This document shows, piece by piece, positions 12,302 to 47,894 of a stretch of 64,000 nt of DNA; the first letter of the stretch is position 1, and every line of letters starts with the position of its first letter. The translations under genes were made by a program, and so were the position numbers. The stretch comes from Escherichia coli (GTDB taxonomy: Bacteria; Pseudomonadota; Gammaproteobacteria; Enterobacterales; Enterobacteriaceae). Location of the stretch: the NCBI RefSeq assembly GCF_024223415.1, contig NZ_CP100500.1; one strand, written 5' to 3'. The notes beneath the pieces were generated by a model. That model was not told where the DNA came from. It searched no databases and worked only from the letters and a program-made list of their open reading frames with translations.

Positions 12302-12600
12302 ATGAGTCAGCCAAATCAGCTTTGTGTGGGTATTGATGTTTCTAAAACAACTCTTGACATTGCTACTGCTAACAACGAGTTTGCTCAGTTTACTTCTTGT
12401 AACGACACCGATGGTTTTTAGCTCATCATTGCTGAATTGAGAAATCATTCGGTGGCGCTGGTTTTGATGGAGGCTACTGGTGGGTTTGAAGCTGCTGTAG
12501 CCTGTTCACTTTAGGCTGAAGGTTTTGATATAGCTGTTATCAATCCCAGACAGGCCAGGAATTTCTCTCGTGCTAAAATCAGTTATTTCCCGAGGTTGGA
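12302..12600 (+). pseudogene. IS110-family transposase N-terminal fragment with internal stops
   Basis: MSQPNQLCVGIDVSKTTLDIA...[38 protein letters not shown]...; two stop codons and loss of similarity after about 12600. Confidence 0.6.
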
Positions 12601-12787
12601 TAGCCCTGTCCGATCAACATTTCCCAACATAGCTCACAAAACAGACACTTTATTTATTGACTTTGTTTTAATATGTGATAAATACGGAGAAGTGGTCTAA
12701 CAGGTTTAATGATTGGTCGGACAAGATGATAATAAATGGCATTTTATATCAACCAATTTTCATGTTTATACATAGAGGAGGGATTAT

Positions 12788-13777
12788 ATGAAAATTAGGT
12801 TATTTATCCATTCGTTATTTTATTCATCAGTTCTGGTGACTTTGCTTATCAATAGCGTAAATGCCGCAGAAAAAGTGACATTAAAATTGGCACACAACCT
12901 TGAACGCAGTCATGTTGTACACCAGACTTTTGAACATCTGGCAAACGAGGTAAAACAACTTTCTAATGGCAATATTGTCATTCGTATATACCCCAGTAGC
13001 CAGATGGGTAATGCGCGAGAAACTATGGAGTTGTTACAAAATGGCGCACTGGATATGACCAAAGGTTCCGCCAGTGATCTGGAGTCTTTTGATAATATTT
13101 ATGCTATCTATAATTTGCCGTTCTTATTTAAAGATCAGGCGCACTTCAACAAAGTGGTTTTTGGTGAAGTTGGTAAAGAAATTATGGACTCAACAAAAGA
13201 CAAAGGCTTTTTTGCTTTATCAGCTTATGTAGCGGGTACTCGCAGTTTCTATGCGAAAAAACCGATTACTAAGCCAGAAGATCTTAAAGGGCTGAAAATT
13301 CGTGTTCAGCCAAGCCCGACCACCATCAAAATGATTGAACTGATGGGGGGCTCACCCACTCCAATTTCATTTGGCGAAGTTTATACTGCGATGCAGCAAG
13401 GTGTAGTAGATGGCGCAGAAAATAACGTGCCTTCCTGGGTGCAGACTCGACATATCGAAATTGCCAAAGTCTTTTCTGAAGATGAACATGCCTCAATTCC
13501 TGACTTTTTGGTTATCTCCACCAAAACATGGAATAAATTAACCCCAGAACAGCAACAAATCCTCGAAACAGCGGCGAAGAAATCCGAAGCTTATCAACAA
13601 AAATTGTGGGAAAAAATTGACGCTGACACACGTGCTCAGGCGAAAGCTATGGGTGGTGAAATCGTTAAGGTTGATAAAGCCCCATTCCGTGCCGCAGTTC
13701 AACCTCTGTTTGACGACTTCAAAAAAGATCCAAAACAAGCTGCTTTGTTAGAGAAATTCGACAACGCTGCTCAATAA
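12788..13777 (+). CDS. TRAP transporter substrate-binding protein (DctP family)
   Basis: 329 aa, signal peptide, DctP-like sequence; first of three co-directional TRAP genes; substrate unknown. Confidence 0.85.
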   Translation: MKIRLFIHSLFYSSVLVTLLINSVNAAEKVTLKLAHNLERSHVVHQTFEHLANEVKQLSNGNIVIRIYPSSQMGNARETMELLQNGALDMTKGSASDLESFDNIYAIYNLPFLFKDQAHFNKVVFGEVGKEIMDSTKDKGFFALSAYVAGTRSFYAKKPITKPEDLKGLKIRVQPSPTTIKMIELMGGSPTPISFGEVYTAMQQGVVDGAENNVPSWVQTRHIEIAKVFSEDEHASIPDFLVISTKTWNKLTPEQQQILETAAKKSEAYQQKLWEKIDADTRAQAKAMGGEIVKVDKAPFRAAVQPLFDDFKKDPKQAALLEKFDNAAQ

Positions 13778-13783
13778 TATTTC

Positions 13784-13807
13784 GGGCCAGTCTCTGGCCC
13801 TGATTTT
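13784..13807 (+). terminator. Stem-loop followed by T-run after the TRAP binding-protein gene
   Basis: GGGCCAGTCTCTGGCCC followed by TGATTTT. Confidence 0.4.
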
Positions 13808-13812
13808 CCAGG

Positions 13813-14325
13813 ATGCTTACAATGATATTTAACCGCCTGAAACTTGCGGTAGACCGCGTCATTGCCGCGTTTTCTGTCGCCGTCATGCTTGCTCTGGTTG
13901 TATGCGTAGTCTGGCAAGTATTTAGCCGCTACGTACTTAACCAGCCAAGTACATTAACCGATGAGCTGGCACGCTTTTTGATGATCTGGGTAGGATTATT
14001 AGGTGCTGCATATACCGTCGGCGCGCAGAGACATCTCTCTATCGATTTATTTGCTCTCGCCCTGAATAAGCGCAAGCAATTACTTCTTAGTATAGTCATT
14101 AACATTCTCATTTTAGGTTTTGCCGGTTCGGTCATTGTGACTGGTGGCCTGAAATTAATTGATAAAACACTGGCAACATCACAGGTATCTGCCGCGATGC
14201 AAATACCGATGGGATACGTATATATCATTCTGCCATTAAGTGGATTGGTGATGATGTTTTATGCCTTGTGTTTTATTAATCAAAGCATTCAACAACTGAA
14301 ACAACCTGCGCAGGAGGCCAGTTAA
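13813..14325 (+). CDS. TRAP transporter small permease (DctQ family)
   Basis: 170 aa hydrophobic protein with four predicted TM segments between the DctP and DctM genes. Confidence 0.8.
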   Translation: MLTMIFNRLKLAVDRVIAAFSVAVMLALVVCVVWQVFSRYVLNQPSTLTDELARFLMIWVGLLGAAYTVGAQRHLSIDLFALALNKRKQLLLSIVINILILGFAGSVIVTGGLKLIDKTLATSQVSAAMQIPMGYVYIILPLSGLVMMFYALCFINQSIQQLKQPAQEAS

Positions 14326-45984: not shown

Positions 45985-46382
45985 CGCTTCAGTTCCTGTA
46001 TCAGCAGAGTCAGGAGCTTTTCGCTGACATTGCCATTGAAGCGGAGCGTCCCGTGCCGGAACGTTACCTCACAGCTGATACTGAGGGTTTCCGGGTCCTC
46101 TGCGAGCGATTCTGGCTGTTCGGCAGCTGCATCGAGAGTCACAGGAAGTAGCTGGGGGCTCTCTGAAGAAGGTAATAGCAGCTTTCCCTCGCGCCATTGT
46201 TGTCGCCATTTGAACAACAGATTGGCGTTAATGCCATTTTCAAGAGCAAGTTTTGAGATGGATATCCCGGGTTCACAGGAGGCAGCAACGAGCTGCTGTT
46301 TAAATTCGGGAGGATAATTAGGGCAGCCTTTTCGCCTGCCGGGAGTCACATTTTTCTGCATATCTGACACTTTGGTTCCCAC
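45981..46382 (-). CDS. IS66-family TnpA (Orf1)
   Basis: 133 aa with HTH ...PEFKQQLVAASCEPGISISKLALENGINANLLFKWRQQW... Confidence 0.88.
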   Translation of the reverse strand: MGTKVSDMQKNVTPGRRKGCPNYPPEFKQQLVAASCEPGISISKLALENGINANLLFKWRQQWREGKLLLPSSESPQLLPVTLDAAAEQPESLAEDPETLSISCEVTFRHGTLRFNGNVSEKLLTLLIQELKR

Positions 46383-46461
46383 TACTTATTTGGTGGACAC
46401 CACTTTGTCTAATTCGTCAGATTCTGACCAGACGGTTCAGGCTGTACGCTTACGCTGAACC

Positions 46462-47227
46462 GATAATCCGCCGTGAATATAAATCAACAACGAGTGCGAG
46501 ATAACACCATTTGTCCTGCAGGCGAATAAAACTGATGTTGCCGCACCAGACGCGGTTTGGTGCGGCGGGGTGAAATTGCCGGTTCAGTAAATTTGGCAAT
46601 GGCGGACTTTTGTCTTCGTTTACCCGGTAGTGATGTTTAACTGGCTGTCGACTTGTCAGCCCGCATTCCCGCATCAGTCGTCGTGCCAGCCACCGGCCTG
46701 CATCAACGCCACTATGGCGCAACATCTGACTGATTGCCCGGCTACCGACTGCGCCACGACTGAGAGCATGGACAGCCCTCACCCGACTTCGTAATTCAAT
46801 TCTTTGCACATTAACAGGACGCTTCACCTGCGCGTAATAAATGCTACGGTGAATACCGAATAAATGACAAAGAACCCGCACTGGCCACTTTGCTTTCAGC
46901 TGTGTGATTAGCGCGACAGTTTCCCCGGGGATTTCGCTCATCAGCACGGCAGCCTGCTTTAGTATTTCTTTTTCCATCTCAGGGCGCTTTATCTGCGCTT
47001 TAAGCTGCTTAATTTAGCGTTGTTCAGGAGTAATAGCATTACCAGCGGGCTCAATACCCTGAAGTTCCTGCTTATACAACCGTATCTATTTACGCAAATG
47101 GTCAGGGTTGAGCTCGAGTGCCAGCGCGACTTCTCTGACATCACGCTGGTATTTAACCACCTGTTCGATAGCTTCAAGCTTGAACTCCGGGGAAAAGGTA
47201 CGTTTAGTCCGACGAGTTTTGATCATG
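46462..47227 (-). pseudogene. IS3-family OrfA and OrfB N-terminal part (proximal to the IS66 insertion)
   Basis: OrfA MIKTRRTKRTFSPEFKLEAIEQV...; OrfB ...RRLMRECGLTSRQPVKHHYRV...PNRVWCGNISFIRLQDKWCYLALVVDLYSRRIIGSA ending at the duplication. Confidence 0.7.
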
Positions 47228-47334
47228 CATCACCTCATTTTCACTTTTTAACATTAACAGTGAAAATGAGGTGTCCTGAATTACCGATCCACTACACAGA
47301 GAGTGACCAAAGGATAACGTGTCCTGAGTTTCCC

Positions 47335-47710
47335 TATTATAGAGAACTGTTCAGGGAGGCTGACATCAAGAGTGCAGTAGCCTTTTTAATATTTCATTCT
47401 CCATTTCAATGCGTTGTAGCTTTTTCCTCAGCTCACGTATTTCGATTTGTTCTGGTGTCATCGGAGAGGCTTTTAGTGTTTTGCCCTGACGCTCATCACG
47501 CAGTTGTTTGACCCATCTTGTCATTGTGGAAAGGCCGATATCCATAGCTTTGGCGGCATCTGCCACCGTATAGTTCTGGTCAACAACCAGTTGGGCGGAT
47601 TAGCGTTTAAACTCTGCGCTAAAATTTCTTTTTTTCATTAGGGCACCAGTCTTGTTCTGAGGTGAGCATATCACCTCTGTTCAGGTGACCAAATTCAGTG
47701 TGCCATTTCA
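47335..47710 (-). mobile_element. IS911 left-end fragment (IRL plus orfA with nonsense codon)
   Basis: Reverse strand matches the IS911 IRL and orfA as recalled (TGAAATGGCACACTGAATTTGG...; [52 protein letters not shown]...); similarity ends at about 47335. Confidence 0.8.
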
Positions 47711-47789
47711 GTCTGTAATGCGCTGTGTGAAAAAGCTCACTGACAGTCTGAGTATTTGTCTGCAAAGGATGGAGGCCCGTCGAGGGTTC

Positions 47790-47894
47790 CTGAAAACCAC
47801 TGGTGCGCTGGCGAATAAGCTGACAAGAATCATCTGGCGTGTTTTGAGCGATAGTATTGATTTTAATATGCAGAAGGCCGTTGTGATGAATTAA
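47790..47894 (+). pseudogene. Possible IS110-family transposase C-terminal fragment
   Basis: ...GFLKTTGALANKLTRIIWRVLSDSIDFNMQKAVVMN* resembles the conserved C-terminus of IS110-family transposases; same strand as the N-terminal fragment at 12302. Confidence 0.35.

Follow-up and report, generated by a model that had tools for sequence, protein, structure and literature searches.

Gene layout and end repeats separate two types of insertion sequences within the IS110 superfamily (PMC11187229, PMC12288879). In the IS110 group (sensu stricto), the transposase gene is preceded by a long non-coding region, which encodes the bridge/seek RNA (PMC12288879, PMC11187229), and terminal or sub-terminal inverted repeats are absent; the transposases of the IS492/IS621/Piv branch measure 315-330 aa (PMC11187229). 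Members of the IS1111 group (e.g., IS4321/IS5075 and ISEc11) have a long downstream non-coding region and a transposase of 330-350 aa (PMC11187229), and their sub-terminal inverted repeats are followed by extensions of 7 bp on the left and 3 bp on the right.

The window (the entire stretch of 64,000 nucleotides of Escherichia coli DNA that was analyzed) contains pieces of one element of each type. As the original prediction had it, the + strand carries two IS110-family fragments separated by about 35 kb, one in an ORF starting at 12302, the other in an ORF ending at 47894, and both yield profile and homology matches. These positions delimit only the coding parts; the element-derived DNA comprises 12122-12575 and 47711-48132. 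The parent types are represented by RefA, a 1,178-bp element of E. coli that carries no name and encodes a 323-aa transposase (WP_000082157), and by RefB, a 1,349-bp element located on plasmids of Klebsiella and Rahnella, with a 344-aa transposase (WP_182015606 from Klebsiella aerogenes plasmid pYD-K10_1; WP_013576221 from Rahnella). The parts are as follows:

12122..12301, + strand: left end and 180-bp upstream non-coding region of a RefA-type IS110-group element (alignment to RefA copies)
12302..12575, + strand: codons 1-91 of a RefA-type DEDD transposase, pseudogene (PF01548, NF033542, alignment to WP_000082157)
47296..47710, - strand: 5' part of an IS911-family (IS3 family) element (~93% identity to annotated copies)
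47711..47894, + strand: final 60 codons and stop codon of a RefB-type (IS1111-group) transposase (alignment to WP_182015606, 94% DNA identity to pYD-K10_1, NF033542)
47895..48132, + strand: 238-bp downstream non-coding region and right end of the RefB-type element (alignment of six copies)
47980-47988, + strand: putative guide loop AAGTTGATC of the RefB-type fragment, within the downstream non-coding region
48006-48019, + strand: second putative guide loop GTGTAGTGATTAGG of the RefB-type fragment, within the same region
48119-48129, + strand: right sub-terminal inverted repeat GGGACGTCCAT of the RefB-type fragment, followed by the 3-bp extension ATA to 48132

The N-terminal fragment (12122-12575, + strand) has a length of 454 bp, 180 bp of which are located 5' of the ATG. 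The translation of its ORF, which starts with MSQPNQLCVGIDVSK, matches the Pfam family PF01548 (DEDD_Tnp_IS110; E 1.2e-10, 41.9 bits at a cut-off of 29) at profile positions 1-86 of 155, that is, only in the first half of the domain, and the NCBIfam family NF033542 at positions 1-87 of 343 (E 2.3e-14); the reading frame is interrupted by two TAG stops (12419-12421 and 12512-12514). The left edge is exact at 12122 (CCCCTTGTATCTTG), as defined by four independently inserted 1,178-bp copies with unrelated left flanks. On the other side, the homology stops at an alignment breakpoint (12575) and gives way to the upstream region of a TRAP transporter operon. The fragment shows 90% DNA identity to RefA and shares 84 of 91 residues with WP_000082157 (aa 1-91). 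Identity is 96% in the coding part but only 81% in the upstream non-coding region, and the differences in the latter are clustered (12136-12159, 12185-12222, and 12268-12274), which indicates that the fragment stems from a diverged variant and is not a copy of the sampled RefA. Since no intact element with more than 90% DNA identity to the fragment was found among E. coli genomes or in a plasmid DNA search, its true parent must be a RefA variant whose 3' part has never been seen directly; a word-indexed protein search with the fragment as query returned only proteins of at most 160 aa and added no full-length relative. An identical copy in the genome of ECCNB12-2 is labeled in RefSeq as an IS110 family transposase pseudogene.

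RefA has the characteristics of the IS110 group. Its gene is preceded by 180 bp and followed by 26 bp, the longest end-to-end inverted match amounts to 6 bp (i.e., there are no end repeats), and its 323-aa transposase falls inside the size range of the IS492/IS621/Piv branch. The N-terminal fragment resembles the members of this branch, with their upstream bridge/seek RNA, in its left end, its RefA-type upstream region of 180 bp, and its DEDD N-terminal domain, but only 39% of the element is kept, with two nonsense codons, and the right end is absent from the window.

The C-terminal fragment (47711-48132, + strand) has a length of 422 bp, 238 bp of which are located 3' of the stop codon. It corresponds to aa 285-344 of the 344-aa RefB transposase, with 94% DNA identity to the copy on pYD-K10_1 and 51 of 59 residues shared with WP_182015606 (aa 286-344), and shares 85-87% identity with the C-terminal ends of full-length transposases annotated as IS110-family (tblastn E 2e-26; within-window E 2.5e-27). 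The match to NF033542 covers positions 304-340 of 343 (E 3.6e-4); WP_182015606 scores 334.8 bits against the same profile (cut-off 140). PF02371, which maps upstream of the breakpoint, is missing from the fragment, and the 60-aa peptide gave no transposase match in Pfam, only a sub-threshold TAT-signal match; in RefSeq genomes, the peptide is mostly unannotated or called hypothetical. Over all 422 bp, identity is 94%, 88%, and 82% to three plasmid loci, each comprising the 3' end of an annotated full-length IS110-family transposase gene and its downstream region. The right end of the type is set by six copies with different right flanks, whose alignment ends with ...CCATATA, and the downstream non-coding region contains a conserved consensus hairpin, which is kept in the fragment together with its loops. 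On the left, the fragment is truncated at 47710/47711 by the adjoining tip of the left terminal repeat (TGAAATGGCAC...) of the IS911-family piece, which is ~93% identical to copies annotated as “IS3-like element IS911 family transposase”. An IS1111-type element that targeted an IS911 end was considered for this junction and rejected; the complete IS911 tip adjoins transposase codon 285, indicating that IS911 inserted into the RefB-type element and not the reverse.

RefB has the characteristics of the IS1111 group. Its gene is flanked by 76 bp upstream and 238 bp downstream, the 344-aa transposase lies within the size range of the group, and a perfect inverted repeat of 10 bp (ATGGACGCCC / GGGCGTCCAT) is located 7 bp and 3 bp from the ends. 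The C-terminal fragment resembles the IS1111 group, as represented by RefB, in its 60 C-terminal codons, its 238-bp downstream region, and its right sub-terminal repeat with the 3-bp extension (48119-48132), but only 31% of the element is left in the window, and the left end is absent. A search of 5,426 E. coli genomes yielded no RefB-type copy above ~70% DNA identity, apart from truncated remnants.

Both fragments have lost the capacity to encode an active transposase and retain only the non-coding guide-RNA region and one recombination end each. The upstream region of the N-terminal fragment folds with -47.4 kcal/mol (z -2.25). Among the Rfam families that exceed gathering thresholds in the window, there is no bridge/seek RNA but only the ALIL frameshift pseudoknot of a neighboring IS3-family element, which we take to be IS629-like. 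That the non-coding regions of the independent relics are still functional guide-RNA genes, acting in trans with intact elements at other genomic sites, is very improbable. Both regions are complete, the C-terminal fragment has kept hairpin and loops, and trans-supplied non-coding regions support transposition of ISEc11 and ISEc21 experimentally (PMC11187229). However, the natural promoter forms only in the excised circle (PMC12288879), and a one-ended relic is unable to form a circle. Moreover, the window contains no intact partner element, and the non-coding region of the N-terminal fragment shares only 81% identity with its nearest intact relative.

The two fragments are almost certainly independent, inactive relics of two different insertion sequences of the IS110 superfamily, which ended up 35 kb from each other during the assembly of a mosaic E. 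coli genomic island. Both belong to this superfamily of DEDD transposases (NF033542), one by its N-terminal domain, the other by its C-terminal tail, but they match different members, as the original prediction had considered more likely: the N-terminal fragment aligns with RefA (aa 1-91) and the C-terminal fragment with RefB (aa 286-344), and the two references share only 24% amino acid identity. The alignment proposed there, of both fragments to a single reference, does not yield complementary parts of one element. The N-terminal fragment shares only 20 of 84 residues with RefB (aa 1-87), a family-level similarity, and the C-terminal fragment only 5 of 31 residues with the C-terminus of RefA, a score that shuffled controls also reach. 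RefA and RefB have no further match in the window, and searches with an ISEc45-family pseudogene and with another IS110 from Rahnella revealed no other IS110-family pieces there.

A single ancestral IS110-family element split by ~35 kb of inserted or rearranged DNA, as also envisaged in the original prediction, would agree with the common strand, with the pairing of an N-terminal and a C-terminal piece, and with the non-overlapping residues that were kept (aa 1-91 and 285-344). This scenario can nevertheless be set aside almost completely, because parents that differ at ~24% protein identity and in the placement of the long non-coding region point to independent remnants and not to halves of one element. 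In addition, the inner breakpoints differ (an IS911-family end in one case, the upstream region of the TRAP operon in the other), there is no common inserted unit between the fragments, and the junctions differ in their distribution. It is hardly conceivable that the C-terminal fragment is not transposase-derived but an accidental ORF or the 3' end of a gene for a LysR-type regulator, since the missing Pfam match, the missing or hypothetical annotation, and a distant blastn match overlapping a LysR pseudogene annotation are outweighed by the plasmid homologs of the entire 422 bp and by the tblastn and NF033542 matches, which also answer the earlier doubt whether this fragment is IS110-related. 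The LysR gene itself was rejected as a candidate; the overlap is only 13 bp, and the match represents a further copy of this IS tail, likewise truncated.

The junction of the N-terminal fragment with the TRAP module is present at ≥99% identity in one of 5,426 complete E. coli genomes, whereas the IS911/C-fragment/PhoX junction is present in 94. The one genome with both (ECCNB12-2) carries them at 4.32 Mb (- strand) and 5.23 Mb (+ strand), i.e., 910 kb apart and in opposite orientation. The DNA between the fragments is a patchwork (TRAP, IS2, restriction genes, xylose/GH43, PTS/GH1, porin, ROK, AbgT, SPATE, and IS66), pieces of which are located far from one another in other genomes; nested IS3-family and IS66 remnants are located at 44-47.3 kb of the window. 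From these relatives, we infer the history of this particular arrangement, including the order of events and the mechanisms of deletion. A RefA-type IS110-group element of ~1.18 kb would have inserted at 12121/12122; its distal 61% would later have been lost where it now meets the TRAP-transporter module, and two nonsense mutations would have arisen in it. An IS911-family element would have transposed into codon 285 of a RefB-type IS1111-group element of ~1.35 kb, whose upstream 69% were then presumably lost via further IS-mediated rearrangements.

Two independent remnants of this kind are an ordinary finding. The 35 kb between them are not cargo within an IS, and there is no unusual rearrangement to explain. 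Because the histories of the two modules differ, the fragments are useful as markers of island assembly, and the C-terminal fragment, which is unannotated in most RefSeq genomes, can now be labeled as an IS1111-type remnant.

A separate observation concerns the RefB clade, copies of which occur in Enterobacterales and also on Pseudomonas contigs. RefB-type elements are located inside the terminal repeats of IS3/IS911-type elements, and one of the loops of the downstream non-coding region changes in sequence along with the flanks. When guide loops were extracted with a position filter and a free offset, in a test of the RefB clade, the best match of a loop to the right flank averaged 7.13 of 9 positions, compared to 5.43 +/- 0.23 for shuffled pairings (23 loop/flank pairs with 14 distinct loops; 0 of 10,000 shuffles reached the observed value). 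A loop that is complementary to the flank and changes with the target suggests, at the level of sequence, a targeting guided by bridge/seek RNA. The right end of IS911 reads TGAAGTGGTCAACAAAAACTGGCCAC and the putative guide loop of the RefB type AAGTTGACC.

It is possible, although somewhat short of an even chance, that the RefB clade is specialized in insertion 5 bp inside the terminal inverted repeats of IS3/IS911-family elements and that its 9-nt loop was repeatedly re-tuned to the repeats of the host IS. The clade resembles IS4321/IS5075 in its insertion into terminal inverted repeats of other transposable elements, but the targets are repeats of IS3/IS911-type IS and not those of Tn21-family transposons. 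A search of the literature outside ISfinder, where an entry may exist, yielded no account of such targets for IS1111 elements. The targeting of IS3-family ends and the co-variation of guide and flank are a modest addition to the RNA-guided targeting of IS110/IS1111 elements; if the specialization is real, the clade would be an example of one IS family living as a parasite on another and would offer a set of guides that were retargeted in nature.

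The two IS110-family fragments of the window are genuine and independent, and they do not make up a single element.

12122-12575, plus strand: N fragment, the 5' part of an IS110-group element
47711-48132, plus strand: C fragment, the 3' part of an IS1111-group element

The coding part of the N fragment starts at 12302 (plus strand; peptide MSQPNQLCVGIDVSKTTLDIA...) and contains in-frame TAG codons at 12419 and 12512; past 12575 all similarity is gone. It scores above the gathering threshold of Pfam DEDD_Tnp_IS110 and covers positions 1-87 of the NCBIfam profile NF033542. The intact element closest to it comes from E. 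coli and encodes the 323-aa transposases WP_000082157/WP_000082158 (RefA), and no closer intact relative was found among the E. coli genomes and plasmids searched. Four copies of RefA at three different insertion sites (the interior of cas3f, the interior of lacZ, and one site common to two related plasmids) share a stretch of exactly 1,178-1,181 bp, with 180 bp ahead of the start codon, about 26 bp past the stop codon, and no terminal or sub-terminal inverted repeats at the ends. Homology with the window starts exactly at the common left end of the copies (12122, CCCCTTGTATCTTG) and ends at 12575; the N fragment therefore represents positions 1-454 of the 1,178 bp of RefA. Identity is 96% in the coding part and 81% in the upstream non-coding region, where differences from the nearest intact element are concentrated at 12136-12159, 12185-12222, and 12268-12274. 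Such clustering would be consistent with altered guide loops in a bridge RNA.

The coding part of the C fragment ends with a stop codon at 47892-47894 (plus strand; peptide tail ...ALANKLTRIIWRVLSDSIDFNMQKAVVMN). It had no match in a Pfam search but matches positions 304-340 of NF033542 and shares 72-87% identity with the C-terminal ends of IS110-family transposases annotated on Klebsiella, Rahnella, and Yersinia plasmids. DNA identity over the 3' 422 bp is 94% to an element on a Klebsiella aerogenes plasmid, 88% to that of Rahnella, and 82% to that of Yersinia ruckeri. Alignment of six copies of this Klebsiella/Rahnella plasmid element (RefB) in five distinct right-flank contexts (one locus is the same in two E. 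coli strains) placed its right end at ...GGGGCGTCCATATA; with the left end at TGATGTGATGGACGCCC..., the element measures 1,349 bp. Its gene, encoding a transposase of 344 aa, lies between 76 bp of upstream and 238 bp of downstream non-coding DNA, and a perfect 10-bp inverted repeat is set in from the tips by 7 bp on the left and 3 bp on the right. The C fragment comprises the last 60 codons, the entire downstream region, and the right repeat. On its inner side it stops at the intact tip of a minus-strand IS911-family element (47296-47710). The region to the left is a nested IS graveyard (46450-47290 and 47020-47710), in which the 5' end of the IS911-family element is broken by another IS3-family remnant, itself truncated beside IS66 family genes (44049-46382).

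The original prediction of N- and C-terminal IS110-family remnants on the same strand is thus borne out, as is its preference for independent remnants, because the fragments match different members of the family. The fragments do not descend from one ancestral element, as alignment showed that they are not complementary parts of a single reference. RefA and RefB share only 24% identity over 263 aa. The N fragment has 84/91 identities with RefA and 20/84 with RefB; the C fragment has 51/59 with RefB and 5/31 with the RefA tail, the latter inside the range of shuffled controls. Each reference matches the window once, at its own fragment, and two further IS110-family queries had no match in the window. 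The layouts are opposite: RefA has its long non-coding region upstream and lacks repeats, whereas RefB has it downstream, together with sub-terminal repeats and 7/3-bp extensions. These are the published features by which the two groups are told apart; IS110 members encode their guide (bridge/seek) RNA upstream of tnp, IS1111 members downstream of it (PMC12288879; PMC11187229).

Each fragment retains one recombination end and its own non-coding region. Both are dead: the N fragment stops after codon 91, about halfway through the DEDD domain (PF01548), and lacks the C-terminal domain altogether, and the C fragment is reduced to the final 60 residues. Transposase and guide RNA are expressed from a promoter that arises in the excised circle (PMC12288879), and a one-ended relic cannot form this circle.

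The window as a whole is an E. coli island of mosaic composition. Among 5,426 complete genomes, the junction between N fragment and TRAP operon occurs at an identity of at least 99% in only one, strain ECCNB12-2, whose copy RefSeq already annotates as an IS110-family pseudogene; the IS911/C-fragment/PhoX junction is present in 94, mostly without annotation. In ECCNB12-2, the two junctions are 910 kb apart and on opposite strands. The intervening 35 kb carry a TRAP transporter, restriction genes, sugar-utilisation modules, a ROK regulator, AbgT, a SPATE autotransporter, IS66, and presumably IS2; pieces are widely scattered in other genomes (4.2 Mb apart in strain GF60). About 1,400 E. coli genomes have a TRAP operon between hemW and yggM, to which that of the window (12788-15626) is only 91% identical; the latter is a second allele, carried on the island, with a 100% match only in ECCNB12-2. 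Overall, these data fit two remnants that were acquired and decayed separately.

Several other features of the island were observed. In ECCNB12-2, the TRAP operon is followed by a segment of 766 bp (L001 9611-10376) that in the window (1789-2554) has the opposite orientation and is about 13 kb distant; this points to an IS-associated inversion or rearrangement that sets the two strains apart. An IS3-family element (10203-11510), which we take to be IS629-like, interrupts a DsbD-family pseudogene and is absent there in ECCNB12-2; its frameshift pseudoknot matches Rfam ALIL (116 bits, 10541-10657). The gene pair at 17821-19508, located between what we assume to be IS2 and a GH43/xylose module, may be a small defence module; in GF60, its homologues carry the annotations phosphorothioated-DNA-binding restriction endonuclease and HNH endonuclease.

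The three plasmid copies of RefB have TG(A/T)AG as left flank and TGGTCAAC(A/T)AA(A/T)ACTGGCCAC as right flank; we take the two together to be the right terminal repeat of an IS911-type element, interrupted between bases 5 and 6. A pattern search with one genome per species returned 35 stretches, of which 34 carry the tail of the element (the exception is an alphaproteobacterial MAG contig); they stem from Photorhabdus, Xenorhabdus, Serratia, Yersinia, Rahnella, Buttiauxella, Brenneria, Trabulsiella, and Pseudomonas. Most right flanks of the clade resemble end repeats of IS3-family elements, and that of locus L045 bears a clear similarity to the left end of the IS911-family element in the window. 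The clade appears to insert 5 bp inside the terminal inverted repeats of IS3/IS911-family elements.

In the downstream region, a conserved hairpin has a 9-nt loop whose sequence is reverse-complementary to the start of the right flank and varies with it (loop/flank pairs AAGTTGACC/GGTCAAC, AAGTAAACC/GGTTTACT, TTCTTATAC/GTATAAGAA, and AACTTAACC/GGTTAAGT). Across window positions 47895-48145 and the comparison loci L004-L008 and L016-L049, the best match averaged 7.13/9, against 5.43 ± 0.23 for shuffled pairings (23 distinct pairs; 0/10,000 shuffles as high), and the result was unchanged with one pair per distinct loop. Such covariation is the behaviour expected of a seek/bridge RNA. The window copy (loop AAGTTGATC, flank TGCTCAACAAAAG) matches at 6/9, and 11 of 13 bases of this flank agree with the inner part of an IS911-type repeat. 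Ten E. coli genomes carry another, shorter remnant of this IS1111-type tail next to a LysR pseudogene, for example:

L004 3001-3333 (E. coli G3X16-2): loop changed to AAGTAAACC, flank GGTTTACT
L005 3001-3333 (JNE151685): the same loop and flank

From its loop and flank, this remnant looks like a naturally retargeted copy. For an IS-rich island, such a pair of fragments is nothing unusual; the only mildly new points are the target preference and the variable guides of the clade from which the C fragment derives.
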